A stretch of 64,000 bases of DNA from Pyrinomonadaceae bacterium (GCA_036522415.1 DATDFV010000230.1:43783-107782), one strand, 5' to 3'; positions 7,906-60,360 are shown, counted from the first letter of the stretch. The notes: a model not told the origin generated them from the letters alone. A program made the numbers and translations.

Positions 7906-7994
7906 AGATCTCAGATCTCAGATCCCAGATCTCAGATTTGTTTTTGAGGTTCGTAGTGCCGTTTAGATCTCAGATCTGGGATCTGTGATCTGGG
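7906..7994. repeat. family A palindromic element: inverted tandem AGATCYC heptamer arrays
   Basis: agatctc agatctc agatccc agatctc agat, a 30-nt spacer, then gagatct gggatct gtgatct ggg. It starts 1 nt after the glpX stop. Confidence 0.85.
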
Positions 7995-8008
7995 CATCCG
8001 GATTACAC

Positions 8009-8614
8009 ATGCCGCTTTCACCAACTGAGTATCAATCACAGACTCAACGCTCTGTCGTACCGTTTCTCTTTTGGCTAGGGTGCGTTGCGATTGCTCTCTG
8101 TGTCATTAGTTTGATCGTCGGTGCGCCGTTAGCGGCAGCCTCCAACCATCAGCAATTCGCTGTCGCGATCTACCATTCGTTCAAGACGCTTTGTCATCAA
8201 CTTCCAGAACGATCGTTTTTTATTGCCGGCCACCAGCTTGCGGTCTGTGCTCGATGTACAGGATTGTACGGCGGATTTACCCTGGTATTGTTTCTCTATC
8301 CGTTGCTTCGGAGCTTACATTCCACGGATGTGCCCAAGGTGAAGTGGCTTTTTCTCGCCGCAACCCCGTTAGCAATAGATTTTAGTTTGACGTTGTTTGG
8401 TCTTTGGGAAAACACGCACACCTCACGTTTGTTGACCGGAATGTTGTTGGGTGGCGTTACGGTGTTTTACGTAATGCCTGGAATCCTGGAGCTGGCGCAG
8501 CGTGCTACCCGGGTTAGCCCGCAATCCACGATCGAGGGAACGTTCACGCTGGTTTCTCCCGAGGCGATTGCAGCCGCTCCGAGTGATTACAGCGCACCGC
8601 AGCGGAGAATTTGA
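8009..8614 (+). CDS. DUF2085-like membrane protein
   Basis: CHQLPERSFFIAGHQLAVCARCTGLYGG motif with 4 TM helices. Start moved to MPLSP because the ORF's first 8 codons lie inside the family A repeat. Confidence 0.6.
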   Translation: MPLSPTEYQSQTQRSVVPFLFWLGCVAIALCVISLIVGAPLAAASNHQQFAVAIYHSFKTLCHQLPERSFFIAGHQLAVCARCTGLYGGFTLVLFLYPLLRSLHSTDVPKVKWLFLAATPLAIDFSLTLFGLWENTHTSRLLTGMLLGGVTVFYVMPGILELAQRATRVSPQSTIEGTFTLVSPEAIAAAPSDYSAPQRRI

Positions 8615-8767
8615 ACAGGCTACTGAGTACGACAGGTTAGCCTGTCGTGGTTCGGTTTGGGATGACAGGCTGACAGCGTGTCGTACGTTTCGTGGTTTGG
8701 AGCGGTTAGGTTAGAATCACTGCCGCAATCGAGCGGTCGAAGTGACCAATCAGAGCATTATCTGAGG

Positions 8768-8796
8768 CGCCGTCGGGCAGTAGCTGACGGCGTTTT
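8768..8796 (+). terminator. hairpin + T5 (terminator/attenuator-like) 38 nt upstream of the GT2 gene
   Basis: CGCCGTC, a 10-nt loop, GACGGCG, then TTTTT. Confidence 0.35.
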
Positions 8797-8833
8797 TGGG
8801 TGTAAAGCCTAAGATTCTTGTAGTTAGTTACTT

Positions 8834-10468
8834 ATGATTTTTCAAAGCCCAGCCGCAACCCCCTGGCCAACGCCGATAGGGCCAGGTCCGGACGCCGTTT
8901 TTGCAAAGTACTATCACGACCTCGTTAACAAAACCTGGGCGAACATCAGCCCGCTCTATCAACTCGACACCTTCGACTACATCATTCTCTTTTCCTACTT
9001 TTCCATTCTCTTTCTTTTGGCAGTCTACGGTGCGTACCGCATCAAACAGGTCATTGACTTCTGGCGTTATCGAAACTTTGTTCCCGAGCCTGCCGGACAT
9101 TTCGCTGAGGAAGAACTGCCCGTAATCACGGTTCAACTACCGCTCTTTAACGAGTTGTACGTAGTGGACCGTTTGCTCAAGGCAGTCACAGCTTTCGACT
9201 ATCCGCGCGAGAAGTTGGAGATTCAGGTTCTCGATGATTCAACGGACGAAACCGTAAAAGTGGCTGAAGCCGTAGTTGCGAAATATGCCGCGCAGGGTTT
9301 CGACATTCATTACATCCATCGAACCGACCGCACCGGATTTAAGGCGGGTGCACTCGAAAACGGAAATAGAACCGCAAAAGGCGAGTTGCTCGCGATCTTT
9401 GATGCCGATTTTGTTCCGAAGCCTGATTGCCTGAGAAAGTTAGTTCATTTCTTTACTGATCCTCTAGTCGGCTGCGCCCAAATGCGCTGGGCCCACATCA
9501 ACGGCAATTACAATCTGCTAACTCGCCTGCAGACGATCATGCTTGACGGCCACTTTGTGGTTGAACAAACTACGCGCAACCGGACTGGAGGCTTCTTCAA
9601 CTTCAACGGTACCGCAGGCATCTGGCGCCGGCAGGCGATTGAGATGAGTGGAGGTTGGCAGCACGATACCTTGACCGAAGACACCGACCTCAGCTTCCGG
9701 GCGCAATTGATGGGATGGAGATTCATCTATCTCCTCGATGAGGAAGCTCCGGCCGAAATACCCGTTGAGATTAACGCATTCAAGGCTCAGCAACGGCGTT
9801 GGGCCAAGGGCGTGATGCAGGTTGGCCTGAAGCTATATCCTCGCATTTGGCGCGTGCCACTTCCTTTTCGAGTGAAGCTCGAGATGTTTTTCCGTCTAAC
9901 CGGAAACATCAGTTATCCGCTGATGATTGTGGCAAGTTTTCTGCAGTTTCCACTGTTGCTTGTTCGTTACAACCAACCGTTTTACCACTTAATGATCTTA
10001 GATTTGCCGCTGCTGTTCTTCTCATCGATTTCTGTTGTTTTGTTTTATGGAACCGCTGTCTGGTATCTCGATGATCGACGCACTCCACGTCTATTGCACT
10101 TGCCACTGGTAATGGCGTTGGGTATTGGCCTGGCTTTCTCAAATGCACGTGCTGTCCTCGAGGCGCTCTTAGGTGTTAAGACGGATTTTATTCGCACACC
10201 GAAATATCGTGTTGAAGACACCACTGATGCGACGTGGAAACGAAAGAAGTACAGAAGGAAGCGCGGTCTTTTGCCGTTACTTGAACTCAGCTTCGCGATT
10301 TACTTCCTCTTAGCCATTCTTTACTCGGTTCGGTTACACATGTGGGGAACGATTCCATTTCTCACGCTGTTCTTCTTTGGCTTTGGTTACATGGGTGTGA
10401 TGAGCTTGTTGCAAACTGCCAGTGGGAAGCGGATCGCAGCATTCTGGAAACCGATAAAAGCCCGATAG
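8834..10468 (+). CDS. family 2 glycosyltransferase, processive type
   Basis: DDSTDET, DAD, TED and QQRRW (QxxRW) motifs. Multiple TM helices at both ends. Confidence 0.85.
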   Translation: MIFQSPAATPWPTPIGPGPDAVFAKYYHDLVNKTWANISPLYQLDTFDYIILFSYFSILFLLAVYGAYRIKQVIDFWRYRNFVPEPAGHFAEEELPVITVQLPLFNELYVVDRLLKAVTAFDYPREKLEIQVLDDSTDETVKVAEAVVAKYAAQGFDIHYIHRTDRTGFKAGALENGNRTAKGELLAIFDADFVPKPDCLRKLVHFFTDPLVGCAQMRWAHINGNYNLLTRLQTIMLDGHFVVEQTTRNRTGGFFNFNGTAGIWRRQAIEMSGGWQHDTLTEDTDLSFRAQLMGWRFIYLLDEEAPAEIPVEINAFKAQQRRWAKGVMQVGLKLYPRIWRVPLPFRVKLEMFFRLTGNISYPLMIVASFLQFPLLLVRYNQPFYHLMILDLPLLFFSSISVVLFYGTAVWYLDDRRTPRLLHLPLVMALGIGLAFSNARAVLEALLGVKTDFIRTPKYRVEDTTDATWKRKKYRRKRGLLPLLELSFAIYFLLAILYSVRLHMWGTIPFLTLFFFGFGYMGVMSLLQTASGKRIAAFWKPIKAR

Positions 10469-10591
10469 ATCACAGATCTCAGATCCCAAATCCCAGATCT
10501 CAGAAATGGGTCCTATAGGTCCAATAAGTCCTATCTGTAATTTGAGATCTGGGATCTGGCATATGGCATCTGGGATCTGAGATCTGAGATC
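10467..10591. repeat. family A heptamer-array palindrome with an embedded family G unit
   Basis: agatcac agatctc agatccc aaatccc agatctc, then gggtcctataggtccaataagtcctat, then gagatct gggatct...gggatct gagatct gagatc. It overlaps the GT2 stop. Confidence 0.85.
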
Positions 10592-11495
10592 ATCTTTCCA
10601 GTTCTTTTCGAGGCCAGCCGCCGAGATTCGCACCTGCCTCATAAGTGCTTTCCAGGAACTCCATCAATGCACCATCAGGATCGCTCGCAGCTCTCACGTC
10701 GTCGTACAAGAACAAAAACTCAGCCATATCGGTACTGTAGAAAGCTTTCTCGGGGCGAATCTTCGCCTGACCTAAACCTTCGGGAGCAGGGGCTGTGTAA
10801 GAATAAAAAGCCGGTTTGCCCAATGGACCTTGTCCCGGCCACCAACCATGACTGATCACTTCGTGTGAATACGCTTCGCGAGTAATCGGGTCTGCATCCG
10901 GCCGTGTCGGCGCCGGACGTCCTGAGAAGCGTGTGACTGCAAGATCGAAACTACCCCAAAAGAAATGAACGGGACTGCATTTGCCGATAAATCGCGATCG
11001 AAACTCTTGCAGAACTCGATCGGCATGTTTGAGTACCTGCCAACACTTGTTTGCATATTCAGGATCATAAGATTTATGAACCTCGTCCTGATCGAACGGG
11101 ATCGGATCTGGAATTTCCACCGGCATCTTCCAGATCCGAACAGTCAGGCCAAGGTCATCGAGGGCCGACATGGTTTCTCTGCAGAAAGCAGCGACTGACA
11201 TTGGTCTTAGCGCGATCTTCCGCGAAGCGCCGTCACTACATCTGATCTCAAGATTGTGATCGATAAAGTCAAACTCCATTTCAAAGAACGTCGATCCGTA
11301 CGGCATTGCGGTGGTAGTCAATCCTCTCGCAGAGACGTAGAGAGGAACATTCCACCAATGGTTGACCAGCGGTGTTTGGGCCAGTCTGACTTTACCAACG
11401 ATCTGCGTCCACATGTGCAGCGTCGCTCGTGTGTCTTCCCATGCTTCGAGTGGCAACGTTGGCCATGGTTCTGGAGTTTGGATAGGTTGTGACAT
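10590..11495 (-). CDS. conserved hypothetical protein (DUF5996-like by recollection)
   Basis: 301-aa ORF with good codon usage. N-terminus WPTLPLEAWEDTRATLHMWTQIVGKVRLA resembles the Ava_C0101/DUF5996 family (assigned from memory, unverified). Confidence 0.7.
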   Translation of the reverse strand: MSQPIQTPEPWPTLPLEAWEDTRATLHMWTQIVGKVRLAQTPLVNHWWNVPLYVSARGLTTTAMPYGSTFFEMEFDFIDHNLEIRCSDGASRKIALRPMSVAAFCRETMSALDDLGLTVRIWKMPVEIPDPIPFDQDEVHKSYDPEYANKCWQVLKHADRVLQEFRSRFIGKCSPVHFFWGSFDLAVTRFSGRPAPTRPDADPITREAYSHEVISHGWWPGQGPLGKPAFYSYTAPAPEGLGQAKIRPEKAFYSTDMAEFLFLYDDVRAASDPDGALMEFLESTYEAGANLGGWPRKELER

Positions 11496-11639
11496 GGTTG
11501 GCTCTCTCCTCTATCTGGAAATCTCTGTGTATCTCTTATATATCTGCGTGTCTGTGGTTGGAGAATACGATATCACCACAGAGGCACGGAGACACAGATC
11601 AACTTAGTCCGCAACCAAACCATCCTGAAAGGATGACAG

Positions 11640-11807
11640 TTAATAGCCGTGGGCGAGCGGCTTTGCGCGAAGCCCACGGAAGCAGGCGGTTACTGTCCGA
11701 CCCTGAAGGGGTCAAACCGGGCGGATGTTTGACCCTTTCAGGGTCTTCAATCTTTGCTTGATAACTCCCGTGGGCTTCGCGCAAAACCGCTCGCCCCCGG
11801 CTATTAA
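11640..11807. repeat. 168-bp imperfect long palindrome (candidate structured RNA or MITE)
   Basis: Left arm ttaatagccgtgggcgagcggctttgcgcgaagcccacgg...ccctgaaggggtcaaa. It is the reverse complement, at about 85% identity, of right arm tttgaccctttcagggtc...cccgtgggcttcgcgcaaaaccgctcgcccccggctattaa. Confidence 0.7.
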
Positions 11808-11889
11808 CTTCGGTCCCTTCGGGACGAGAATCTTGCTCAAAAAAACAAGAACTTGTTGGGTAGTTTCACAGAGAGAATCCTGACCCACC

Positions 11890-11919
11890 TTGACACCTGT
11901 TTCAGTTAGCACCTATAGT
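11890..11919 (+). promoter_or_regulatory. sigma70-like promoter (TTGACA-18-TATAGT)
   Basis: TTGACA at 11890-11895 and TATAGT at 11914-11919. It lies upstream of the leader ORF and cysM operon. Confidence 0.5.
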
Positions 11920-11952
11920 TTCGACGTACTAAATCCAGCCCAATTCAGAACC

Positions 11953-12054
11953 ATGAAACTGAAGGCTTGCGCATGTTGTTATTACTGCCCCTGGTGCTGC
12001 TATTTGCAGCGCGACCGGAAGGCCGTGTGCAGGCGTGAGGGGCGGGAGACGTAG
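11953..12054 (+). CDS. candidate Cys-codon-rich leader peptide (33 aa)
   Basis: MKLKACACCYYCPWCCYLQRDRKAVCRREGRET. It has 7 Cys codons including two tandem pairs. It sits between the promoter-like element and the terminator preceding cysM. No clear SD. An overlapping 21-codon ORF starts at 11973. Confidence 0.35.
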   Translation: MKLKACACCYYCPWCCYLQRDRKAVCRREGRET

Positions 12055-12084
12055 CCAAACACCAGCACTAATAAACGGCAGATA

Positions 12085-12118
12085 CCGGTTGCGCTATTTC
12101 GATAGCCGACCGGTTTTT
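12085..12118 (+). terminator. intrinsic terminator (attenuator arm) 18 nt upstream of the cysM start
   Basis: CCGGTTG, a 15-nt loop, CGACCGG, then TTTTT. The 5' arm can alternatively pair with GCGCGACCGG at 12010-12019 inside the leader ORF. Confidence 0.6.
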
Positions 12119-12135
12119 AGTTTTCAACGGTCTTT

Positions 12136-13068
12136 ATGTCACTTAGTGTTTTAGAAGAATGCGGAGTTGCTGCTCCTGGCAGTATCGAATCACGCATCGG
12201 GCATACGCCTCTCTTGCGCTTGCCGCACCTGAATCGCGATTTGCCGGTTGATGTGGAAATTCTCGTCAAAGCCGAACACCTCAACCCGGGCGGTTCTGTA
12301 AAAGACCGACCTGCGCTGTCGATGATCCTCGAGGGTGAACGCAGCGGAAGGCTGCGACCCGGCATGACTATTGTCGATGCGACCAGCGGTAACACTGGAA
12401 TTGCTTACGCTATGATCGGCGCTGCTCGGGGTTATCCAGTCACCGTCTGTTTACCAAAAAACGCAAGTATCCAGCGCAAAAACATCCTGCGAGCGTATGG
12501 CGTTGAGATCATTGAGACTGACCAGATGTTGTCAACCGACGGCGCTCAACGCATCGCGCGCGAGCTTCACGCGGCCGAACCCGACAAATACTTCTACCCC
12601 GATCAATACAACAACGACGCCAACTGGCTGGCGCACTACGAAACGACGGCAAACGAGATCTGGACACAAACCGAAGGACGTGTTACGCACTTCCTGACAG
12701 GTCTCGGCACCTCTGGAACCTTCACGGGTGTTGTTCGCCGCCTGCGTGAGTTAAAACCTGAGCTGAACGCGTTGTCTGTTCAACCGGAATCTCCCTTGCA
12801 CGGGCTCGAAGGTCTGAAACATATGGCAACAGCTTCGCATCCCGGAATTTATGATGAAACTTTGGTGGATCGCGTTATCGAAGTGTCAACAGAAGATGCC
12901 TTTGACATGTCCAGGCGCCTGGCGCGTGAACAAGGTTTATTGGTTGGGCCAAGTTCAGGAGCGAACGTATTTGCCGCCCGAAAACTCGCGCACTCATTGA
13001 GCGTTGACGCAGTAATTGTCACAATACTCTGCGACGGCGGTGAAAGATACTTAAGCGAGATGCTTTGA
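12136..13068 (+). CDS. cysM: cysteine synthase, CysM/CysK family (PLP-dependent)
   Basis: PLP-lysine motif SVKDRPA, glycine-rich loops GNTG and GTSGT. It is the first gene of the operon containing mec and cysO-moeZ. Confidence 0.9.
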   Translation: MSLSVLEECGVAAPGSIESRIGHTPLLRLPHLNRDLPVDVEILVKAEHLNPGGSVKDRPALSMILEGERSGRLRPGMTIVDATSGNTGIAYAMIGAARGYPVTVCLPKNASIQRKNILRAYGVEIIETDQMLSTDGAQRIARELHAAEPDKYFYPDQYNNDANWLAHYETTANEIWTQTEGRVTHFLTGLGTSGTFTGVVRRLRELKPELNALSVQPESPLHGLEGLKHMATASHPGIYDETLVDRVIEVSTEDAFDMSRRLAREQGLLVGPSSGANVFAARKLAHSLSVDAVIVTILCDGGERYLSEML

Positions 13069-14267
13069 TGGCTGACAAGGAACCCACATTCGATATCGCG
13101 ACGAAGCTGGTTCATAGCGGCGAGCGGCAGACCGCATCCGACGCTCAGTCAGTTGCGACGCCGATCTATGCCACTGCCACGTTCACCTACGAATCGATGG
13201 AGGAGATCGATCGCGTGTTCAGCGGCGAAAAGCAGGGCTTTATCTACACGCGCTATGGAAATCCAACTATCGGTGCCCTTGAGAATGCGATTAAAACTAT
13301 CGAGGAAGGTGCAACTGCGTGTGCATATTCCACCGGCATGGCCGCGCTGCACGCAGCGCTATTTGCGTGTGATTTGAAACCCGGTGCCACAATCGTCGCT
13401 TCTCAAGATCTATACGGTGCGACTACTGGCCTTTTGAATACGGTGTTTGGCTCGTTCGGCATCAAGACTGTTGCTACGGATTTCAGTAATCTTGAACAAT
13501 TACGAGCAGCAGTGCTGGAGGCAAAGCCGGCGGTTCTGGTTGCAGAAACTATCTCAAATCCACTACTGAAAGTTTGCGACATCGAGGCCTGCGCTGAAAT
13601 CGCCCGCGAAGTCGGAGCGCGGTTAATCGTGGATAACACGTTTGCTTCGCCATACCTCTGCCAACCTCTAAAGTTCGGAGCTGACCTCGTTGTTCACAGC
13701 GCAACAAAATACCTGGGGGGCCACGCTGATGCGATGGGCGGCCTGGTTGTCTCGCGGGATGAGTTTGATAGCCTGGCACTGGTCGGCGTAATGAAACTGG
13801 TTGGCGGAGTTCTAAGTGTCTGGGACGCGCACCAAATTTCGCGTGGGATTAAAACGCTTGGTGTTCGGCTCGATCGTCAATGTGAGAATGCCAGAGTGCT
13901 GGCGGAACACCTGCGAAAAGACGAACGAATAGATGAGGTTTATTATCCGGGATTTCAGTCGGCAGTTGATTTAGTAGTTACTCGGCGAATGCTGAGAAAG
14001 CCGCACTCGGGTGCGTTGGTATCGATCAAACTGAAGAACGACACCCGCGAAGCTGCGTTTCGATTCATGAATGCTTTGCGGTTGTGTGTGCGTTCGACGA
14101 GTTTAGGAGATGTTTTTACCAGCGTGCTGCACCCATCAACTGCTTCGCACAGAGATTTGACACCAGCTCGAAGGGCGGAGCTTGGGATCGCGGATGGACT
14201 GATTCGGATTTCGGTGGGAATTGAGAGTGTTGATGACATAATTGCAGATATTACACAGGCATTGTGA
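13065..14267 (+). CDS. Cys/Met-metabolism PLP-dependent enzyme (MetB/MetZ/MetY family sulfhydrylase or gamma-synthase)
   Basis: SATKYLGGHAD PLP-lysine motif. Its start overlaps the cysM stop (ATGA). Confidence 0.85.
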   Translation: MMADKEPTFDIATKLVHSGERQTASDAQSVATPIYATATFTYESMEEIDRVFSGEKQGFIYTRYGNPTIGALENAIKTIEEGATACAYSTGMAALHAALFACDLKPGATIVASQDLYGATTGLLNTVFGSFGIKTVATDFSNLEQLRAAVLEAKPAVLVAETISNPLLKVCDIEACAEIAREVGARLIVDNTFASPYLCQPLKFGADLVVHSATKYLGGHADAMGGLVVSRDEFDSLALVGVMKLVGGVLSVWDAHQISRGIKTLGVRLDRQCENARVLAEHLRKDERIDEVYYPGFQSAVDLVVTRRMLRKPHSGALVSIKLKNDTREAAFRFMNALRLCVRSTSLGDVFTSVLHPSTASHRDLTPARRAELGIADGLIRISVGIESVDDIIADITQAL

Positions 14268-14294
14268 ATTGAGCTTTGTGCTTTGGTTCGTGAG

Positions 14295-14323
14295 ATAGGT
14301 CCAATATGTCCTACAGGTCCTAT
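14295..14323. repeat. family G element (ATAGGNCCT-type 9-mer units)
   Basis: ataggtccaatatgtcctacaggtcctat, 17 nt upstream of the mec start. Confidence 0.7.
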
Positions 14324-14339
14324 TCACTGATCACTAAGA

Positions 14340-14771
14340 ATGCTAACACTGACGCCAACACATCTCGCGGAAATCTCAAGTCATGGGGAGCGTGACTACC
14401 CTTATGAATGCTGCGGACTGCTCATCGGCCGATTTGATTCAGTCGAGGAAAAGGTGGTCTTGGAGACATATCCGATCTCAAATGCGCGTGAGGAGAGTGC
14501 GAAACGGAATAGGTTTTTAATTGAACCTGAAGAGTTAATGAAAGGAGAGCGGTACGCGCGAACCAACGATCGTGAGGTCGTCGGTTTCTACCATTCGCAT
14601 CCTGAATCACCTGCGGTGCCGTCGCAGTACGATCTGGAACATGCATGGCCGACGTACTCCTATATTATTGTGTCAGTTATTAAAGAGAGGGCCGGCGACC
14701 TGTTTTCATGGGAACAGGAACCTGACAGATCGAAGTTTACGAAGGAAGATATTAAGATTGCGGGGCTTTGA
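14340..14771 (+). CDS. mec: JAMM/MPN+ metalloprotease, Mec (CysO-Cys hydrolase) type
   Basis: JAMM motif HSHPESPAVPSQYD plus upstream E and CCGLLIG. 143 aa. Confidence 0.85.
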   Translation: MLTLTPTHLAEISSHGERDYPYECCGLLIGRFDSVEEKVVLETYPISNAREESAKRNRFLIEPEELMKGERYARTNDREVVGFYHSHPESPAVPSQYDLEHAWPTYSYIIVSVIKERAGDLFSWEQEPDRSKFTKEDIKIAGL

Positions 14772-14862
14772 TTTTTGTACTTTGTTCTTCGTGCTTTGTT
14801 CTTTGCATATCTACCGCCTTAACATAAAACAAAGCACAAAGCACCAAGTACAAAGCACAAAC
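14772..14862. repeat. family E heptamer-array hairpin (TTTGTNC arms) inside the operon
   Basis: tttgtac tttgttc ttcgtgc tttgttc tttg, then a loop, then caaagcacaaagcaccaagtacaaagcacaaa. Confidence 0.8.
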
Positions 14863-14893
14863 GTAAAAGTATTAAGTTGTTGAGAGGATTGTT

Positions 14894-16345
14894 ATGCCAA
14901 TCAAAATTGCCATTCCAGCTCCATTGCGGCAGTTTGCCAGTGGACATTCCCAAATCGAAGTCGAGGCAAAGACGGCGGGCGAAGCGCTCGATCTCCTAAC
15001 TTCAACGCACGCTCCATTACGCAAGCATCTTTTCAACGAGCAGAACAGGCTCCGCAACTTCGTGAATGTTTACCTGAACGATGAGGACATTCGTCATGCT
15101 TCGGGACCTGACACTCCGTTAAAAGACGGCGATACGCTCATGATTGTGCCGTCGATTGCTGGAGGTGCGGTGATCGAAGAAGAAGTTGGACAAGCGCTTC
15201 CGGAGTTGTCCAACGAAGAGATCCTCCGTTACAGCCGGCATTTGATCATGCCTGAAGTTGGAATGCAGGGTCAGCGAAAGATGAAAGCCTCGAGCGTGTT
15301 GATGATTGGTACTGGTGGACTCGGCGCGCCCGTAGGCATGTATCTGGCAGCGGCCGGCGTCGGTCGAATCGGAATTGTGGATTTCGATGTGGTTGAGGAA
15401 TCGAACCTGCAACGTCAGATTATTCACGGGACCAAAGACCTCGGTCGCCGCAAAATCGAATCGGCCCGTGATCGGTTGCGCGACATCAACCCGCACATTG
15501 AGATCGAGACTCACGAATCGAGACTGACAAGTCAGAACGCGATGGCCCTGTTTCGAAACTACGACATCATAGTCGACGGTACAGACAATTTCCCGACTCG
15601 TTATCTCGTAAACGATGCTTGCGTGTTAACGGGTAAACCGAATGTCTACGGATCGATCTTCAGATTTGAGGGACAGGCCAGTGTGTTCTGGGCCGAGAAG
15701 GGTGCTTGTTATCGCTGTCTTTATCCGGAACCGCCGCCGCCTGGCCTGGTTCCATCATGCGCCGAGGGAGGCGTACTCGGAGTTCTGCCTGGCATTGTTG
15801 GTGCGATTCAGGCAAACGAAACGATCAAGATCATTCTCGGCTCAGAAGATATTCTCGTGAATCGTTTGTTGTTGTTTGATGCCTGGACGATGAAGTTTCG
15901 AGAGTTCAAGTTGCGGAAAGATCCGAAGTGTCCGGTTTGCGGCGAACAACCAACAATTAAAGGTTTGATTGATTACGAAGAGTTCTGCGGTTTGCGAGCG
16001 CAGCCGCCTGTTCCCGAATCAAAGTTGGAACAGATCTCTGCTATGGAACTGAATGCCCGCCGCCTGCGTGGCGACAAGATCCAGATCATCGATGTGCGCG
16101 AACCGCACGAGTTTGAGATCGCTCGTATACCGGGAACAAAACTAATTCCGCTGGGACACGTAGTGAGCAGGATGAATGAAATCGATCAGGAAGTGGACAC
16201 GATTGTTCATTGCAAGGGCGGTGTGCGCAGTGCCAAGGCAATTGAGGCATTGAAACGCGCCGGCTTCAATGGGAAGTTGATCAATCTGAAAGGTGGAATC
16301 ACCGCGTGGTCGGAAGAGGTTGACCCGCGGGTGGCGAAATACTGA
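14894..16345 (+). CDS. in-frame fusion: CysO/ThiS/MoaD-like sulfur carrier (aa 1-91, ending GG) + MoeZ/MoeB E1-like adenylyltransferase + rhodanese
   Basis: N-terminus FVNVYLNDEDIRH...MIVPSIAGG is a CysO-like beta-grasp domain. It then reads without a stop into RYSRHLIMPEVG, GTGGLGAP, CYRC/CPVC and the rhodanese HCKGGVRS. GGA GGT (15161-15166) doubles as an SD for GTG 15170. Confidence 0.8.
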   Translation: MPIKIAIPAPLRQFASGHSQIEVEAKTAGEALDLLTSTHAPLRKHLFNEQNRLRNFVNVYLNDEDIRHASGPDTPLKDGDTLMIVPSIAGGAVIEEEVGQALPELSNEEILRYSRHLIMPEVGMQGQRKMKASSVLMIGTGGLGAPVGMYLAAAGVGRIGIVDFDVVEESNLQRQIIHGTKDLGRRKIESARDRLRDINPHIEIETHESRLTSQNAMALFRNYDIIVDGTDNFPTRYLVNDACVLTGKPNVYGSIFRFEGQASVFWAEKGACYRCLYPEPPPPGLVPSCAEGGVLGVLPGIVGAIQANETIKIILGSEDILVNRLLLFDAWTMKFREFKLRKDPKCPVCGEQPTIKGLIDYEEFCGLRAQPPVPESKLEQISAMELNARRLRGDKIQIIDVREPHEFEIARIPGTKLIPLGHVVSRMNEIDQEVDTIVHCKGGVRSAKAIEALKRAGFNGKLINLKGGITAWSEEVDPRVAKY

Positions 16346-16349
16346 TCAT

Positions 16350-16376
16350 TGGTCTTTGGACTTTGGTCTTAGGCCT
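16350..16376. repeat. family F heptamer array (GGYCTTY), single arm
   Basis: ggtcttt ggacttt ggtctta ggcctt. Confidence 0.5.
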
Positions 16377-16418
16377 TGATGAGATCTAAACCTGCAAAGC
16401 AGGTGAAAGCATAAAGCT

Positions 16419-16605
16419 TGGGGCGCCAGCCCCAGGGTAGAAGTGCGATACGAGCATCGAGCCCGCGGAGCGGGCGAAAGCGGATTGGTTGATGAGGCAT
16501 AACCTCGACCCGCTGTCGCCCGCTTCGCGGGCTCGGTATTTTAATCCATCGTGTCCTGGGGCTAACGCCCCAGGGTTTACGCTTGTCGCCCGCTCCGCGG
16601 GCTAG
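16419..16605. repeat. array of 5 GC-rich hairpins between convergent genes
   Basis: ggggcgccagcccc and ggggctaacgcccc, alternating with three copies of gcccgcKKMgcgggc (gagcccgcggagcgggcga, gtcgcccgcttcgcgggctc, gtcgcccgctccgcgggcta). Confidence 0.7.
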
Positions 16606-18089
16606 TCCACACTGATCCCCAATCGATCAGCACATTTGAAGAGCGATAGACCAAGCACACACGCAATCACGAGGTTGAAGTAGAAGGTGATTGAGCCGTT
16701 GATGAAGTTCGCCACCAGATTGCCTACAAAAGGCAGTGTCAGTGGAGAAAGAATAAGCGCCACGACACCTCCGACTATGAAAGCCGCAATTTGAACGAGC
16801 AACACCATCCCGAACGCTTTGAAGTAGGTCGAGCGCATACGGCGAATGGTGTCCAGTCCAACCAGGGGATTTAGGACTGACAAAAAGCTTTGCGTGTAGC
16901 CGGCGACCGTGAGCGCCATTGGGTAATAGAAAACTCCCCAGGCAATGCCGAGCAACAGGAGAAGAATCAAAAGAATTCCGGCTCCCAGCAAAGGCAACAA
17001 TTGGCCCATCATGCCGGTTGGATCACTGCGAGCAGCTTTTGATCGCTCCGCCTCTTCAGCAATCTGCGAACCCGGTCGCAGTTTTTGATTCATCTTACGG
17101 TCGACTTCCGCCACCTTCTGCGGATCTGCGTTGGGATCGGTCAGCACACTGAGGTCTTCATTGTTCAGGGTCTCTTGCTGATGAGCTGCCTCAACCTGAC
17201 CCATGGGATCCAGCGACGCCCTGCCGCTGTGGATAGCGCCAAACAGCAACGCGACAACCAATACAATCACCGGCCCCCACGAAACGATTGTGATTCCAAC
17301 GCCCAGAAAGATCGGAACAATCAAATCGTCCCATAAAGAGAATGCGCTGAAGTCAGGCATGAAACTGCGATTGAGTCGTCCCCACGCAACTTGACTTATC
17401 ACGTGCGAGATACAACCAAACATAATCATCCAGGCGATAAGGCTTCCACGAAAACCGCCGAGCAGCAGAAAACCATATATCAGAGCACCGCCCAGCAATG
17501 CTGCTTTGTGTTGGAACGGATACTTCACCGCTCTCACAAAATCATCTATGCCAAACCCGGAGCCCTGAAACTCGGCACGTGCTGTTTTTGACGTAACCTC
17601 TTGATATGAGCGGCACAGGTCGCCGCATAGTGGGCACACCGGAATCTTGCTGCTACCCACGAAGCGAGGACAGTCTTCACACAATGCGACTGCACACATA
17701 CGGCAAAGGTACTTCGCGGGAACATCCGTATGGTTGTGACAAACATTGGGTGGTGGGCCTTCTCGAAAAGCCTGACTGTTCGTGGTATTTGGTTCAAAGT
17801 CGGGAGATTCAAACGGTTCTGTACTTCCGAACGGAGGCGGCATTTGCCATGCGTTGGTTGATGACGACGCGTCGGTTGACTCTTCAGGTGGAGGAACTTC
17901 AATTTCGCCATTGAAGGCACTTTTTAGCTTTGGAACACGGCCAGCTTCAATCCAGTTGAGTTTGCCTTTACAAACTTTGTCGGTTGGCAAGACGCAGCCT
18001 TCAACGATCCACTGCTGTAAAGTTTGGAAGTCGGTTTCAAAGACTCCTTCGTAAGTCGAAACACGCCATATTTCTGGTTGTGCACTCAT
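16602..18089 (-). CDS. membrane protein: N-terminal soluble domain, Cys-rich zinc-ribbon/B-box-like segment, C-terminal Yip1-like multi-TM domain
   Basis: CHNHTDVPAKYLCRMCAVALCEDCP...CPLCGDLC plus 5-6 TM helices. Start chosen at MSAQPEIW (the ORF track extends to 18173). Confidence 0.65.
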   Translation of the reverse strand: MSAQPEIWRVSTYEGVFETDFQTLQQWIVEGCVLPTDKVCKGKLNWIEAGRVPKLKSAFNGEIEVPPPEESTDASSSTNAWQMPPPFGSTEPFESPDFEPNTTNSQAFREGPPPNVCHNHTDVPAKYLCRMCAVALCEDCPRFVGSSKIPVCPLCGDLCRSYQEVTSKTARAEFQGSGFGIDDFVRAVKYPFQHKAALLGGALIYGFLLLGGFRGSLIAWMIMFGCISHVISQVAWGRLNRSFMPDFSAFSLWDDLIVPIFLGVGITIVSWGPVIVLVVALLFGAIHSGRASLDPMGQVEAAHQQETLNNEDLSVLTDPNADPQKVAEVDRKMNQKLRPGSQIAEEAERSKAARSDPTGMMGQLLPLLGAGILLILLLLLGIAWGVFYYPMALTVAGYTQSFLSVLNPLVGLDTIRRMRSTYFKAFGMVLLVQIAAFIVGGVVALILSPLTLPFVGNLVANFINGSITFYFNLVIACVLGLSLFKCADRLGISVD

Positions 18090-18265
18090 AGAGGTTGATT
18101 CCTGAAGGCGAACTTCTGTAGGGGCGTTCGCGAAGTGTGGCGACTGTCGCTTGGGACGTGAGGTTGGCGTCAATTGGACAGCTGGGCCAGACGCCTTAGG
18201 AATACTAGACTGTGGCTTTTGGCAGCGTCAATAGTTTGTTTTGACCGAATAGGCGGCCCGACATT

Positions 18266-18394
18266 CCCGGGACCGCAGGCGTCCCCGCCTGCCTCCGTCC
18301 AGCGGAACCAAACCGCGTGCCCTTGTCCGCTTGTTACTTGAACCCGGCTTGGTTCTGCTGGATGTGGGCAGGCGGGGACGCCTGCGCTCCCAGG
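18266..18394. repeat. family C REPIN (inverted REP doublet)
   Basis: cccgggaccgcaggcgtccccgcctgcc...gggcaggcggggacgcctgcgctcccagg. Each REP has a GCAGGCG-TCCC-CGCCTGC hairpin. Confidence 0.85.
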
Positions 18395-18506
18395 ACCAAC
18401 TATATTGAAATACTTAGGTTTATCGCCCTTGACTTCGTCTCGTCCAAAGTTGAGACTTAGGGCCCTCGTCTTTGTACCAAGCACTTCGAAAACAGAGAGG
18501 TATCCC

Positions 18507-21500: not shown

Positions 21501-21545
21501 AACAGACGATTGCCAATTTCCGATTGCCAAGTGCCGATTTGCTTG

Positions 21546-21649
21546 AATGTCCGACGAACTTTAGTTTGTCGTCTGCGGCCAACGAGGTACTCGGAATAAC
21601 ACGAAGTCCGCAAATCCAACGAACGACAAACTAAAGTTCGTCGGACATT
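21546..21649. mobile_element. family B MITE-like element (24-bp perfect TIRs), nested inside an older palindrome 21508-21690
   Basis: TIR ATGTCCGACGAACTTTAGTTTGTCGT ... ACGACAAACTAAAGTTCGTCGGACAT. It is flanked on both sides by TTGAA. The outer arms gattgccaatttccgattgccaagtgccgatttgc and gcaaatcggcaat...cggaaatcggcaatc are inverted. Confidence 0.75.
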
Positions 21650-21685
21650 GAAGCAAATCGGCAATAGACAATCGGAAATCGGCAA

Positions 21686-22480
21686 TCACCTTACCGCTCT
21701 CAATCTCGACTCCAAATTCTCCCGACGGCTGCGGCTGAGCTTCAATTGAATGCCATCTTCGAGCACGACAATGTAGTCGCCGTTGAAATGTGGGTGGAGC
21801 TCTTTGATTCGCTCGAGGTTGACGATGATTGAACGGTGAATTCGAACGAACCGTTGTGGATCGAGTTGTGATTCGAGCTCCTGCATCTTCTCGCGGAGTA
21901 GATGAGCTTTCTTTCCGACATGCAGTTTTGCGTAATTGCCGTCAGCCTCAATCCAATCAATCTGGTCAACACGAAGAAGTATTACCCGGCTGGCAAGCTT
22001 GATCATCACTCGACTTAGATAGGGCTTAGAGCCGGTTGATAGGCCTTTGTGGCTCTCGCGTTCTTCAAGTAGCGCCAAGAGTCGCTTACTCACTTTGTTA
22101 ATTTCGCGACTCTCGATTTGCGACTTAGCGCGCTGGAGTGCTTGTGTAAACCGCAAATCGTCATAGGGCTTGAGAAGATAATCGAGAGCATGGACCTCAA
22201 AAGCCTTGAGCGCATATTGATCAAACGCAGTGACAAAAACGATCGCCTGAACCAGTTCGGGACCAACGCTTTCAAGTACATCAAAGCCATCCATCTCGGG
22301 CATTTGAATATCGAGAAAGATTAAATCTGGTCGAGACGTTTCAATTGCTTTGATAGCTTCTTTACCATTCCGGCACTCACCAAGTATTTCGATTTGTGGA
22401 TCACGCTCGAGCAGCAGACGAAGATTGCGCCGCGCCAGCGGCTCATCATCGACGATTAGTGTTTTGATTCGGTCTGGCAA
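21686..22480 (-). CDS. LytTR-family response regulator
   Basis: REC domain (LIVDDEPLAR...DLIFLDIQMP) plus a C-terminal LytTR DNA-binding domain. Confidence 0.9.
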   Translation of the reverse strand: MPDRIKTLIVDDEPLARRNLRLLLERDPQIEILGECRNGKEAIKAIETSRPDLIFLDIQMPEMDGFDVLESVGPELVQAIVFVTAFDQYALKAFEVHALDYLLKPYDDLRFTQALQRAKSQIESREINKVSKRLLALLEERESHKGLSTGSKPYLSRVMIKLASRVILLRVDQIDWIEADGNYAKLHVGKKAHLLREKMQELESQLDPQRFVRIHRSIIVNLERIKELHPHFNGDYIVVLEDGIQLKLSRSRRENLESRLRAVR

Positions 22481-22527
22481 AGAATTTAAGAGTTAAGATT
22501 TCAGATTGAAGATTGGTTGGGGAAACA

Positions 22528-22555
22528 GGACCTATATGATCTATTGGACCTATAG
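22528..22555. repeat. family G element between the kinase and regulator genes
   Basis: aggacctatatgatctattggacctatag. Confidence 0.7.
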
Positions 22556-23695: not shown

Positions 23696-23744
23696 TTGAC
23701 AGTCTTGGAGTGCGTCAATACCTACCGCACTCCATAATTGTACT

Positions 23745-23846: not shown

Positions 23847-23866
23847 GCTAACATTACGCCCAGGGT

Positions 23867-24946: not shown

Positions 24947-24962
24947 AACAACTCCTTTGAAT

Positions 24963-26919: not shown

Positions 26920-26925
26920 AGAAGC

Positions 26926-47089: not shown

Positions 47090-47127
47090 TAGGACCTATA
47101 TGACCAATAGGACCCATATGACCTATT
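47088..47127. repeat. family G element (9-mer period)
   Basis: aataggacct atatgacca ataggaccc atatgacct att. Confidence 0.75.
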
Positions 47128-50711: not shown

Positions 50712-50831
50712 AGCGTCCACAGATTACACAGATTTCTTTTATTGAATTCAGGGTAAAGTTCTTGTCGGTGAGAATGAAGGCGTCGAAGTCTGAGTAAAAG
50801 AATCTGCGTAATCTGCGTAATCTGCGGATAG

Positions 50832-52406: not shown

Positions 52407-52600
52407 CTTTGTATTTTGTGCTTTGTGCCTGGTGTCCCGGGATCAACCGATTCTTCTCTGCGCCACCTCTGCGTTCTCTGAGTCTCTGCGGTAGTAGAAT
52501 GCAGGTGCCCGATCCTTACCGCAGAGACGCAGAGAACGCAGAGGTGGCGCAGAGAAGAATCGGTTGATCCCGGGACACCAAGCACAAGTACAAAGATCAA
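52407..52600. repeat. family E composite nested palindrome (TTTGTNC and TCTCTGC modules) between pilZ and the ligase gene
   Basis: ctttgtattttgtgctttgtgcc...ctctgcgccacctctgcgttctctgagtctctgcgg, a 28-nt loop, then the inverted copy ...ggcacaagtacaaag. Confidence 0.85.
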
Positions 52601-53813: not shown

Positions 53814-53914
53814 AGATCTCAGATCCCAGATCCCAGATCCCAGATCTCAGATTCCAGATGGACCCGCAGATCTGCGTTCTGAGATCTGGGATCTGTGATC
53901 TGAGATCTGAGATC
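53814..53914. repeat. family A heptamer-array palindrome between kynU and kynA
   Basis: agatctc agatccc agatccc agatccc agatctc agattcc...gagatct gggatct gtgatct gagatct gagatc. Confidence 0.85.
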
Positions 53915-55100: not shown

Positions 55101-55171
55101 AAGAGTCCTCCTGAGCTTTACTTTAGCACAGCGGCAGTTGGGAAGGGTGCAAGCGGCGAATGTCGGATATG

Positions 55172-55344
55172 CTTTAGAGGCTCTTGCAAAAAGGCCCCAC
55201 GGTCCTGGGAGCGCAGGCGTCCTCGCCTGCCCGTGTCCCGTCTAACCAACAACCATTGAAGGAGTTGGTTGCGCTGGACACGGGCAGGCGAGGACGCCTG
55301 CGCTCCCAGGACCGTGGGGCCTTTTTGTAAGAGCCTCTTTAGCT
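55172..55344. repeat. family C REPIN, about 170-bp near-perfect palindrome
   Basis: ctttagaggctcttgcaaaaaggccccacggtcctgggagcgcaggcgtcctcgcctgcccgtgtcc...ggacacgggcaggcgaggacgcctgcgctcccaggaccgtggggcctttttgtaagagcctctttag. Confidence 0.9.
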
Positions 55345-55492
55345 TGTCGTGACTTGAAAGCGGACCCGATCGGTTTCAATGATCGCTCGTGTTGGTCACA
55401 TACCGACAAGACAGACGCATATCGAACACTCGCCGCTTGCCTCCTTCCCGACTGCGCATTCAATTGTGTCGTGGTAAATTGCTTGTGATCCA

Positions 55493-58225: not shown

Positions 58226-58795
58226 TCAAGTCGCTTCCCGAATTGCCTTCAGGAGGAGGTCGTTTAGTCCTAACTTATTGGCCCAACTCGTCATGTAGGA
58301 CAGATCTAACTGATTACGGTTAATAGCAAGGACACCTACAACGTCAGTCCATTGAGTATTTGACGTTTCATTCCCGACACGATACCAGTTGAGCTTTGCG
58401 AGCACTGTGTCCTCTGCGCTTATGACGAAGATCTTATGTTCCGTGCCTGGTATCTCCCTCAATTGTCTTCGTTGCAACTGGGCAGTCGAAAAGTCATCAC
58501 GAGGAGAGATGAAGATGTCTACTTTGAAAACAGCCTCATAATGGATGGCATTAAAAGATCGTCGCTGAGCGATTGCCTCGCGAATTACTCGCTCATCCAC
58601 ATAGAACTCGTCGCGAAGTGTGATAAACAAACTCGTTGCTTGCGACATTTCAACATCTGCAAGAAGATCGATGTCAGCGGTTGATCGATACAGTCCGTGG
58701 ATTGAACTGGCGAGCGACCCAACGAGTGCATAGGTGATTCCCTGTCCTTCCAGGGCTGAAGTTACCTGGGCCAGCACTGATATTGCCAACCCCAT
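58226..58795 (-). CDS. minimal nucleotidyltransferase (Pol-beta superfamily) domain protein
   Basis: GS...DID motif (LVGSLASSIHGLYRSTADIDLL). 189 aa. Its start overlaps the upstream gene's stop by 1 nt. Confidence 0.6.
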   Translation of the reverse strand: MGLAISVLAQVTSALEGQGITYALVGSLASSIHGLYRSTADIDLLADVEMSQATSLFITLRDEFYVDERVIREAIAQRRSFNAIHYEAVFKVDIFISPRDDFSTAQLQRRQLREIPGTEHKIFVISAEDTVLAKLNWYRVGNETSNTQWTDVVGVLAINRNQLDLSYMTSWANKLGLNDLLLKAIREAT

Positions 58796-59055
58796 CAGCG
58801 ATCCTCGGTGTCCGGATCGAAGCCAAACACATGAATAACTTCCTCGCGAGATAAAACGCGCGCAATGAATTTGCGTCGGAGTGTTGCCTCATCCGCGTTA
58901 GGATTTCGGTACTGAAGATCAGCCATAATAAGTGCACGCGTCGCTTCAGTGAGATCCAGTGCTAGTTTGAGGCGTTGTGCAGGAGAGAGACTGCGCATCA
59001 TTTCATAATGCTTCAGCTGAGCCTCTGGTGATGTGTCCGGTGAGAGTGGTTTCAT
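58795..59055 (-). CDS. small helical protein (86 aa), translationally coupled partner of the nucleotidyltransferase
   Basis: TGATG overlap with the downstream nucleotidyltransferase gene. No recognisable domain. Confidence 0.45.
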   Translation of the reverse strand: MKPLSPDTSPEAQLKHYEMMRSLSPAQRLKLALDLTEATRALIMADLQYRNPNADEATLRRKFIARVLSREEVIHVFGFDPDTEDR

Positions 59056-59067
59056 AAAGCACCGTGT

Positions 59068-60216
59068 TTACGGACTCTTTTCTTTCAGCAACTGGCTCGC
59101 AATCACAATCTTCTGAATCTCGGAAGTGCCTTCGTAGATCCGAAGCGCGCGCACGTCGCGATAAAGGCGTTCAACAACACTGCCACGCACTAAGCCGGAG
59201 CCACCATGGATTTGCACCGCGCTATCAATAATTCGACCAGCCGCTTCGGTCGCAAATAATTTCGCCTCGCTTGCCTCGCGTGTCACTCTTTGCGAGCCAG
59301 TGTCTTTCTGATAAGCGGCGCGATAGACGAGCAGACGAGCGGCATCCAGTTCAGTAATCATGTCAGCCAGCTTTTCCTGAACCAGCTGATGTTCCGCGAG
59401 TAAACGTCCGAATTGTTTTCGTGACGATGCGTAACGGACGGCTTCGTCGAGTGCACGTTGCGCCATTCCGCACGCTGCTGCTCCCACGCTGGGACGAAAC
59501 ACATCGAGCGTCTCCATCGCCAAAGCAAATCCGTCGCCTTCGTTACCAATCATATCTTCCATTGGCACCCGGCAATTCTCGAATTGAATTTCGCCGATTG
59601 GATGAGGTGACATTAAGGCGGTACGTTCGACCACTGTTACACCCGGCACCTTCGCACCGACAACAAACGCGGACAAAGCTGCGCGTCCACCTTCACGAGT
59701 TCCGGTTCGCGCAAACACCGTGTAGAAGTCGGCAATGCCTGCGTTTGAAATAAACCGCTTGCGGCCATTGATAACGTAAGTATCACCGTCAGCTTGGGCC
59801 GTGGTTTGTATTGCGGACACGTCTGAGCCTGCTTCCGGCTCCGTTAATGCAAAGGCTGCGATTGCCCGACCACCAGAGGCGCGGGTAAGCCAAAATTCTC
59901 GGATGTGATCGTGCGCTGCCTGACTAATTGCATACGTGCCGAGTCCCTGCATGACGAAAGCCAGATCCGCCAGCGACGATGAAGAGGCCAGTTTTTCGCG
60001 TATCAAGCAGACCGTGCGACTGTCGATCTTGGTTTCGAGTGGGACACAGCAGCCGAGCAAACCAGCTTTCGCCAATACTTCGACGAAATGACGTGCAAGC
60101 TCCTCAATGTCTTGTTCGTCATTAGCATGTGGTTCGATCTCGCGCTTTACAAACTCGTCGACATCCTTTGCGAGCTTTCGATGTTCGGGAGTGAAAAAGG
60201 GTAGTGTTTCGATCAT
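59068..60216 (-). CDS. acyl-CoA dehydrogenase
   Basis: ACAD motifs (LTEPEAGSD, catalytic region YEGTSEIQ). Confidence 0.9.
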
Positions 60217-60237
60217 AATTCTTCGTCAGTTGCTGAT

Positions 60238-60360
60238 TTGGCCTTTGGCCTTCGGTCTTCGGTCTTTGGCCTTCGGTCTTCGGTCTCGACCTGAAGCAGG
60301 TTTCAAATCTGGGAAAGACCGACGAGCAAGACCGAAGGCCAAAGACCGAAGGCCAAAAGC
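60238..60360. repeat. family F heptamer-array palindrome (GGYCTTY)
   Basis: ggccttt ggccttc ggtcttc ggtcttt ggccttc ggtcttc ggtctcg, then a loop, then the inverted array. Confidence 0.85.

Follow-up and report, generated by a model that had tools for sequence, protein, structure and literature searches.

Inverted pairs of heptanucleotide arrays occupy intergenic spacers of a soil Pyrinomonadaceae bacterium and are predicted to fold into long RNA hairpins

Heptamers of the short tandemly repeated repetitive (STRR) type were reportedly described in cyanobacteria by Mazel et al. in 1990. Heptameric repeats are reported to be over-represented among the long simple sequence repeats (SSRs) of bacteria, an excess for which polymerase slippage has been put forward as an explanation (PMC4692102). 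Xanthomonas campestris and X. axonopodis have about 185 GGGAATC arrays of 2–26 copies, with 70–75 close inverted pairs per genome; the length of these arrays differs between related species, and their type (single or inverted pair) tends to persist (Rehm et al. 2015, PMC4692102). Hairpins of 7-bp STRR units, such as that between hupS and hupL, are not uncommon among filamentous cyanobacteria and have been proposed to act in transcript stability, translational coupling, or termination (PMC2670836), and TTGTCAG, ACTGAC, and ATTGCGA arrays occur in Nostoc spacers (hoxW upstream region; PMC2408588). Upstream of hmw1A in Haemophilus influenzae lies an (ATCTTTC)n array that makes up one arm of a long hairpin in the 5′ untranslated region (UTR); RNase III cuts this hairpin, with a change in expression, and the change in repeat number requires transcription, the hairpin, and RNase III (PMC12721329). 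The TAACTGA arrays of Beggiatoaceae, cyanobacteria, and Bacteroidetes are nearly always direct and oriented, lying a short way upstream of start codons, with one inverted case (PMC4679880), and Geobacter metallireducens contains MTYCTGA ×5, “mostly found in pairs”, and GGACCGG ×4 (PMC2700814). Here, we examined a stretch of 64,000 nt (hereafter, the window) from an uncultured soil bacterium of the family Pyrinomonadaceae (Acidobacteriota; GCA_036522415.1 DATDFV010000230.1:43783-107782), in which heptamer arrays in inverted pairs lie between genes. Our literature searches found no description of such repeats in Acidobacteria. The original prediction for this window had stated that no described repeat class with such a heptad periodicity was known to its author, a statement contradicted by the precedents above (PMC4692102, PMC2670836, PMC2700814, and PMC12721329).

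The elements consist of a run of a 7-nt unit, a short unrelated loop, and a run of the reverse-complement unit, the unit in the arms usually being 7 nt and occasionally 8–9 nt long. Tandem Repeats Finder detected period-7 arrays at every site in the window that had been named earlier. In an independent periodicity scan, the strong arrays of the window comprised eight of period 7, two of period 14, and one of period 9, with none at other periods within 4–15, and 20 dinucleotide-preserving shuffles of the window contained no strong array of any period. When the window was combined with 80 related contigs (748 kb), arrays of at least three copies had a period of 7 in 88 cases, 9 in 20, 8 in seven, and 6 in six. 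Sixteen of the 22 arrays of the window belong to inverted pairs, and the arm pairs were confirmed at 7906/7973, 10467/10546, 14766/14829, 26006/26079, 26926/26963, 40280/40319, 53814/53868, and 60243/60328. Nine elements folded as RNA gave −28 to −80 kcal/mol (z −3.9 to −13.6), each surpassing 200 of 200 shuffles, and two composite elements, at 21507 and 52407, folded strongest (−106 to −160 kcal/mol). RNA duplexes longer than 20 bp are thus predicted at the elements, and it is their positions in likely operons that suggest transcription through them. With the periodicity present at all the named sites and in none of the shuffles, and with the arms and folds confirmed, the predicted class of heptad arrays in inverted pairs proved to be real. 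Not all sites are two-armed heptads as had been claimed, however: most are, but the array at 16349 has a single arm, the element with arms at 24967 and 25018 has a period of 8 (TCTCTGCG), and the inner modules at 52407 are spaced at 8–11 nt. Similarly, the named sites were all recovered, but two elements, at 21507–21687 and 22484–22514, had been overlooked.

The notion that each family has its own heptamer did not hold, as the families are not discrete. The 88 period-7 arrays of the window and its relatives comprise 45 distinct units, and 62 of the 88 arrays fall into one single-linkage group of units one base apart. Because these arrays chain through single-base unit differences, new “families” probably arise by mutation and re-amplification. 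The labels used below are A (AGATCYC), F (GGTCTTT), and H (TCATTTS). In family A, the unit is made up of the palindrome AGATCT and one further base, which is C/Y in the left arm and G/R in the right; since AGATCT is palindromic, a direct-only (AGATCTC)n array is also 6/7 self-complementary. Most arm pairs can align in several registers 7 nt apart, forming a “slippery zipper”: in families A and F, arms shifted by 7–21 nt pair at 0.74–0.89 identity, compared with 0.83–0.86 in the best register. The family H element at 26006 is the only one with a single pairing register. Mirror-image arms were accordingly rejected as a general sign of templated copying, since those of families A and F slide by multiples of 7.

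Contigs 99–99.9% identical to the window are present in independent soil assemblies of ENA, JGI, and Logan, and the closest named relatives of its glpX gene (class II fructose-bisphosphatase) are Pyrinomonadaceae metagenome-assembled genomes (MAGs). The elements recur inside long contigs of these independent assemblies and are therefore not assembly artefacts, a possibility that could be ruled out. Those at 7906 and 53814 were unchanged in near-identical contigs (7906 in four other assemblies; 53814 in L207, the L-numbers being our labels for comparison contigs and loci, such as L002, L123, and L207). Meanwhile, the right arm of the 10467 element was 7 nt longer in L002 and 7 nt shorter in L003 (contigs 99.6–99.7% identical to the window), and one arm of the 60237 element differed by a 14-nt (two-unit) insertion or deletion in L208 (99.1% identical). 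These three were the insertions or deletions found inside elements among near-identical strains, and all consisted of whole units in a single arm. Such change of single arms by whole 7-nt units indicates slipped-strand mispairing and supports the slippage origin that had been suggested for the elements.

Over short evolutionary distances, the elements appear and vanish, and arrays of other units take their place at the same orthologous spacer. We compared the spacer that runs from the glpX stop to the DUF2085 start among 80 loci obtained by a metagenome scan with glpX (85–100% protein identity). In the closest relatives, L123 and L124 (99–100% glpX identity), this spacer is 27 nt long and contains one GAGATCT and no hairpin, so that presence/absence polymorphism at this orthologous spacer was observed between these loci and the window. 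Elsewhere among the relatives, the spacer holds hairpins of GGTCTTW, GTCAGTT, CCAATTG, GCGGAAT/GATTGCG, ACTTTGT, CCATTTG, GCAGTAA, or GGATGAA; some spacers contain nested composites (GAGATCT + GGTCTTT), some contain direct-only arrays, and many contain nothing. The lack of a hairpin in the closest relatives, together with different heptamers in others, indicates fast turnover, and the many hairpin-free spacers indicate that the element is dispensable at this site. At the convergent spacer of the 10467 element, L123 has a family A hairpin that is shorter and differs in its loop, and L126 and L147 have unrelated hairpins. Comparison of the empty spacer of L123 and L124 with the filled spacer of the window revealed no target-site duplication; the spacer was remodelled and not cleanly interrupted.

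On a rough, Pfam-supported gene map of the window, 14 of about 39 spacers of at least 40 nt hold an element. The arrays adjoin or overlap stop codons between open reading frames (ORFs), in agreement with the position originally described, and the spacer is occupied from the stop codon to the next start or stop. They begin from 6 nt inside to 24 nt past the stop codon, mostly within 12 nt, and where there is a downstream gene, its start codon follows 1–34 nt after the end of the arm. In the window and its relatives, at least 66 of the 88 arrays fall in the 12.5% of the DNA that lies outside long ORFs. Nine elements of the window are in co-directional spacers, four in convergent spacers, and one in a divergent spacer, the spacers available numbering 26, 7, and 6, respectively; this is no significant orientation bias, and a preference for convergent spacers or an avoidance of divergent ones was dropped as an idea because the counts were not significant. 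Several elements lie within likely operons, with the orders Mec/JAB–hairpin–ThiS–MoeZ, enoyl-CoA hydratase–hairpin–acyl-CoA dehydrogenase, and MBL–hairpin–ribF.

An exact (AGATCYC)3 scan of one genome per species found more than 117 loci, and the following taxonomy is from the 80 matches listed. About 40% of these were Acidobacteriota, mostly Pyrinomonadaceae, and the other hosts were Planctomycetota, Verrucomicrobiota, Bacteroidota, Gemmatimonadota, Actinomycetota, Hydrogenedentes, Patescibacteria, and others. Among the matches listed, arrays unrelated to the probe at the same loci had period 7 in 39 cases in Acidobacteriota and 60 in other phyla, compared with at most 10 for any other period. 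Just 54 of the 298 period-7 arrays at these mixed-phylum loci were in detected inverted pairs; therefore, it is this lineage, and not heptamer arrays generally, that is marked by a large proportion of inverted pairs. A count according to which 9 of 117 AGATCYC arrays elsewhere, among the matches listed, had an inverted partner was rejected as misleading, because AGATCT is palindromic and direct arrays of this unit are themselves largely self-complementary. Very long direct AGATCTC arrays of 15–25 units or more were seen in MAGs of Pirellulales, Pyrinomonadaceae, and Planctomycetota (L013:3587-3900, L027:5166-5249, and L030:3265-3362); some of the long arrays lay immediately 5′ of a start codon, and some were followed by other heptamer arrays (L071 and L072). 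In the IMG/VR contigs L226 (3300033755_000068) and L227 (3300035696_000253), which have a GC content of 62%, about 22 and 29 hepta- or octamer arrays, respectively, were present per 14–15 kb, a density far above that of the window. Both contigs are viral. L227 carries genes for a portal protein and a large terminase, and its layout, where read, is a stop codon, an inverted-array hairpin, an optional Shine-Dalgarno sequence, and an ATG, between co-directional genes of the region in which these two genes lie (262–362, 2495–2595, and 4122–4232).

From these results, we interpret the elements, with a probability of roughly 0.6, as STRR-type heptanucleotide SSR arrays in inverted pairs that have grown by slippage and act as intercistronic or 3′-end RNA hairpins, not as canonical terminators. 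Most likely, such hairpins would affect the processing or stability of the RNA. A short palindrome or a single unit in a spacer could serve as a seed from which slippage extends both arms; misaligned intermediates would be stabilized where the strand pairs with itself in a shifted register, and both arms would grow until coding sequence halted them. In the transcript, the pair would fold into a long imperfect stem of 20–85 bp, which may present a barrier to 3′ exonucleases and/or a processing site for an RNase III-type double-strand RNase, and may in this way modulate the stability and relative expression of the neighbouring cistrons. The selective effect of each element is probably small.

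Several points weigh against this interpretation. Every functional step in it is inferred from sequence. Slippage alone explains neither the preference for 7 nt nor the inverted pairing; at the mixed-phylum loci listed, 54 of 298 period-7 arrays are in detected inverted pairs. At 26006, the unique register and the perfectly mirrored unit variants are more readily accounted for by an inverted duplication or by compensatory selection than by independent slippage. The pyrimidine-rich arm is the 5′ arm in all seven non-A hairpins of the window, a polarity that this interpretation does not account for, and many orthologous glpX spacers have no hairpin. Finally, when the comparison was restricted to hairpins (a 260-nt post-glpX fold that included G/T-rich DUF2085 coding sequence was discarded), the sense and antisense RNA folds showed no consistent preference (about 12 versus 6, read from the per-element output), and thus gave no clear indication that the transcribed strand is under selection; within the window, six of eight elements fold better as the transcribed strand.

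A serious rival, possible though in our judgement doubtful, is that the elements are neutral by-products of a lineage-specific bias in replication or repair, tolerated wherever coding allows. Their rapid turnover and loss at orthologous sites, the dominance of period 7 in unrelated phyla and in phage DNA, the lack of a consistent strand asymmetry in RNA stability, and the way in which arrays reach exactly to stop or start codons, as if coding constraint alone limited their growth, are all consistent with neutrality. It leaves unexplained, however, the excess of inverted pairs here (16 of 22 window arrays), the perfectly mirrored arms at 26006 and 52423, and the regular stop–hairpin–Shine-Dalgarno–ATG layout of the phage contig, and long mRNA stems would probably have some effect. 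The original prediction had listed bidirectional terminators among the possible roles. Stable long stems stand directly behind stop codons, 4 of the 14 elements lie between convergent genes and reach both stops (10467, 21507, and 29854/30150, with 16349 as a single arm), the orthologous convergent spacers of relatives contain unrelated hairpins, and termination has been suggested for one STRR hairpin (PMC2670836). Nevertheless, a T-run terminator signature was found at no element (scan of window positions 7001–27000, with tails read directly), and in the same scan terminator-like sites numbered 24, compared with 22.9 in shuffles. Moreover, 9 of the 14 elements lie between co-directional genes, several of which are functionally linked, with the next start 1–34 nt past the stem; the phage contig encoding the portal protein and terminase has the same layout between co-directional genes, and close relatives lack the element at the same site. 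The lack of T-tracts and the positions inside likely operons indicate that the elements are not canonical terminators, and intrinsic terminators that work bidirectionally without a U-tract in this lineage seem unlikely.

If the heptad instead reflected a protein and not the polymerase, the arrays could be sites at which a protein binds single-stranded nucleic acid with a footprint of 7 nt; such a protein, for instance one with a cold-shock domain, would tune hairpin formation and thereby antitermination, translation, or stability. The heptanucleotide consensus of Bacillus subtilis CspB, GTCTTTG/T (PMC1904285), corresponds exactly to the family F unit (GGTCTTT)n, which is found more often than any other unit in the related loci (10 arrays), many further units share xTCTTTG or CTTTGNN, and the same idea has been raised for the TAACTGA repeats (MacGregor 2015, PMC4679880). 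Over all 45 units, however, the match to this consensus was weak: the summed score gave p = 0.024 against letter-permuted units, and matches at six or more of seven positions numbered 6 against 3.8 expected (p = 0.13), with AGATCYC of family A, GATTGCG, GCAGTAA, and GGATGAA as misfits. The T-rich arm is 5′ in 7 of 7 non-A hairpins of the window, as such a footprint might require, and in the relatives the pyrimidine-rich arm was 5′ in 17 cases versus 5, but in other phyla the counts were 7 versus 13, so that polarity was discarded as a general rule. As the consensus is that of B. subtilis, it may also differ from the specificity of the cold-shock proteins of this host, and we regard this explanation as improbable. 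A bolder version, to which we give similarly low odds, would trace the heptad to the footprint of conserved cellular machinery by which the arrays are read as well as made, either cold-shock-domain proteins, each bound to one 7-nt unit, or an hmw-like coupling of transcription, hairpin, and RNase III, so that the elements would be self-building intercistronic valves, shared across phyla and borrowed by phages. Least probable of all, in our view, is the insertion by a transposase of non-autonomous mobile elements resembling MITEs (miniature inverted-repeat transposable elements) or REPINs, with the heptad as a family property. Many dispersed copies of the same unit (family A at six sites), presence/absence among close relatives, and the nesting of other repeat families (a 9-mer array in the 10467 loop and a family-B palindrome in the 21507 element) would fit mobility; on the other hand, copies of one family have no common loop, fixed length, or conserved termini, the remodelled spacer has no target-site duplication relative to the empty site of L123 and L124, the arms change one at a time in 7-nt steps, at least eight unit types occur at one orthologous site, and direct-only arrays of the same units are common.

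The elements, none of which is assigned a strand, are distributed over the window as follows. A family A hairpin at 7906–7994, (AGATCYC)×4.6 with a 28–35-nt loop and (GRGATCT)×3–4, fills the spacer from the glpX stop (7903–7905) to the DUF2085 start (8009) and folds at −46.5 kcal/mol (z −5.7). Between convergent genes, a family A hairpin at 10467–10591 (−62.6 kcal/mol, z −6.6) overlaps both stops (10466–10468 on the plus strand and 10590–10592 on the minus strand); its loop holds a 9-mer array (GTCCTATAG-like) at 10510–10531, which is missing from the orthologous element of L123. At 14766–14869, (CTTTGTT)×5.7 and (ACAAAGC)×4.7 form a hairpin (−32.7 kcal/mol, z −5.8) with a JAB/Mec-like gene (stop 14771) on one side and a ThiS-ThiF-rhodanese gene (start 14894) on the other. 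These are the last two genes of an apparent sulfur-carrier cysteine-biosynthesis cluster (12136–16345, plus strand), whose members are a PALP enzyme, a Cys/Met PLP enzyme, a JAB/Mec-like protease, and a fused ThiS-ThiF-rhodanese protein. Directly after the stop of the gene at 14894–16345 is the single-arm array at 16349–16376, about four TTGGTCT-like units with no inverted partner within 300 nt. The composite hairpin at 21507–21687 occupies the spacer of the convergent stops 21500 and 21686 and has 65-nt arms that are 92% complementary (−106 to −118 kcal/mol); its outer arms are heptamer arrays (CGATTGC.. / ..AATCGGC), and inside is a different palindrome (ATGTCCGACGAACTTTAGTTTGTCGT). The hairpin family with the arm ATGTCCGACGAACTTTAGTTTGTCGT, nested here at 21540–21655, stands alone at 44568–44684, and a related copy fills the glpX spacer in L126 (about 11060–11145). 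Flanked by two minus-strand genes, a single degenerate heptamer array (ATTTAAG-like, 4.4 copies) at 22484–22514 is followed by a 9-mer array at 22527–22555. The octamer hairpin at 24967–25049, (TCTCTGCG)×3 and (CGCAGAGA)×3.9 (−53.6 kcal/mol, z −8.2), lies in a divergent spacer upstream of a DJ-1/PfpI gene, the start of which (24946) is 20 nt away.

The family H hairpin at 26006–26120, (TCATTTS)×5.9 and (SAAATGA)×5.9, has 41-nt arms with 100% complementarity (−66 kcal/mol, z −13.6) and is flanked by the DUF1844 stop (25981) and the start of an MBL-fold gene (26155). After the stop of the latter gene (26917–26919), the family F hairpin at 26926–27010, (GGTCTTT)×4 and (AAAGRCC)×7 (−52.7 kcal/mol, z −9.2), makes up the whole gap to the ATG of ribF (27012), which is 1 nt past the arm. 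A left family A array at 29854–29883 (GATCYCA ×4.3) overlaps the stop of an ABC1/UbiB kinase gene and has a long-range partner at 30150–30179 (degenerate ATCTGAG ×4.4), which overlaps the stop (30178) of a minus-strand CHRD gene; with 266 nt between them, the arms are still paired in the minimum-energy fold. A 67-aa ORF enclosed by these arms (29913–30116, plus strand) was called as a gene in six independent assemblies and matches the KOW motif weakly (E = 0.0019, which falls short of the Pfam cut-off), and its 5′ and 3′ flanks pair in the minimum-energy fold (z −2.4). A short family A hairpin at 40280–40336 (−28.1 kcal/mol, z −3.9) lies between the stop of an OPT transporter gene (40267) and the next start (40362). 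The nested composite hairpin at 52407–52590, with 71-nt arms that are 97% complementary (−156 to −160 kcal/mol), is layered into outer CTTTGTR heptamers, a unique segment, and inner CTCTGCG modules at an irregular spacing of 8–11 nt; it is flanked by the stop of a PilZ gene (52597) and the start of an AMP-binding gene (52400), both on the minus strand, and one substitution in L207 makes its stem perfect. The longest family A hairpin, at 53814–53914, (AGATCYC)×6.6 and (AGATCTG)×6.7 (−72.8 kcal/mol, z −9.8), has minus-strand genes on both sides and overlaps a stop at 53913. Finally, a family F-like hairpin at 60237–60362 with a 14/21-nt super-unit (TTTGGCC TTCGGTC TTCGGTC; −80.3 kcal/mol, z −10.9) is flanked by the stop of an enoyl-CoA hydratase gene (60363) and the start of an acyl-CoA dehydrogenase gene (60216), both on the minus strand.

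Other repeats also occur in the window. A 9-nt tandem class of the TATAGGTCC / AGGACCTAT type was present at 10510–10531, 14297–14322, 22527–22555, 47088–47123, and 61654–61683, as well as at L147:17205-17234. A perfect 9-mer array of AATCTGCGT with 2.9 copies was found at 50801–50826 and in relatives (L161:1866-1889 and 2086-2111; L195:5755-5789 and 6197-6222; L198:8405-8428), where it is sometimes near the reverse-complement array CGCAGATTA, indicating that the inverted-array habit is not strictly a heptad one. GC-rich REP-like palindromes sharing GGGACCGCAGGCGTCCCCGCCTGC lie at 18265–18395, 34716–34835, and 41151–41236, with arms of 32–54 nt that are 80–97% complementary; the heptamer elements differ from them and have no fixed shared palindrome, in accordance with the distinctness from REP that had been predicted. 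Long inverted and tandem repeats sharing CTCTTCTGTCGGAGGGCGGCCG... (37316–37668 and 43060–43268; 72-nt period, arms of 81–91 nt) constitute a further intergenic family. There are also two large intergenic inverted repeats, at 63055–63304 and 55134–55455, one with 95-nt arms (87% complementary, 60-nt loop) and the other with 85-nt arms (89%, 13-nt loop) within a 39-nt outer pair. The whole window had no matches to Rfam 15 at the gathering threshold. GATC was not enriched in the window (459 observed versus 456 expected under a Markov model), and an idea involving GATC and Dam was dropped.

Why the long simple repeats of bacteria favour 7 nt and inverted pairs has been a puzzle since the 1990s, and this lineage provides unusually good material for it. 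Over a third of the window's spacers hold an element, one orthologous spacer has seen dozens of births, independent of one another and with different units, the polymorphism in unit number is measurable between co-occurring strains, and a phage has the same layout between its genes. Such material would allow tests of slippage against templated growth and of a role at the RNA level. For annotation, the elements account for much of the intergenic DNA of Pyrinomonadaceae and should not be labelled as terminators, MITEs, or CRISPR-like arrays.

Repetitive extragenic palindromic (REP) elements and bacterial interspersed mosaic elements (BIMEs) of enterobacteria and pseudomonads are palindromes that follow stop codons in intergenic and intra-operon positions and, although not true terminators, keep 3′ exonucleases from degrading the mRNA upstream. 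REPs are fixed, imperfect palindromes of 20–40 nt whose sequence is conserved and which RAYT transposases disseminate. The elements described here resemble REPs and BIMEs as abundant intergenic and intra-operon palindromes after stop codons, and their working mode is likely shared; however, unlike REPs and REPINs, they have no fixed sequence or length, being made of tandem units, and their copies differ in unit number, loop, and length. With the TAACTGA repeats and the Geobacter sites they have in common that tandem heptamers lie in intergenic positions near starts or gene ends across phyla, and the CAACTGA unit of L137 is one base off TAACTGA. As in hmw1A, the unit number shifts by slippage, and a heptamer array is predicted to serve as an arm of an RNA hairpin, whereas hmw1A is a single phase-variable 5′-UTR locus in which the second arm is a G-rich non-repeat, and here both arms are arrays and the elements are found at many housekeeping gene junctions. 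With STRRs, the elements share 7-bp units, which fall into several families within one genome, a location between genes and within operons, and the prediction of hairpins, and the Nostoc TTGTCAG/ACTGAC and ATTGCGA units nearly match GTCAGTT/ACTGACA (L137) and GATTGCG (L162 and L188) in our loci (PMC2408588). The stems here reach 85 bp and −50 to −160 kcal/mol, in contrast to roughly −10 kcal/mol in the hoxW example, and because the host is an acidobacterium and not a filamentous cyanobacterium, we regard the elements as the same kind of repeat and not as STRRs in the strict sense. Like the GGGAATC arrays of Xanthomonas, they consist of tandem 7-nt units, mostly intergenic, with pairs of arrays on opposite strands that are able to form stem-loops (PMC4692102). 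In Xanthomonas, however, there is one G-rich unit (GGGNATC) with G-quadruplex potential, whereas here there are many units, none of which in the window contains a G3 tract, the unit itself is swapped at orthologous sites, and the host belongs to a different phylum. The elements are therefore a known type of repeat in a new host lineage, with many units and at a very high density.

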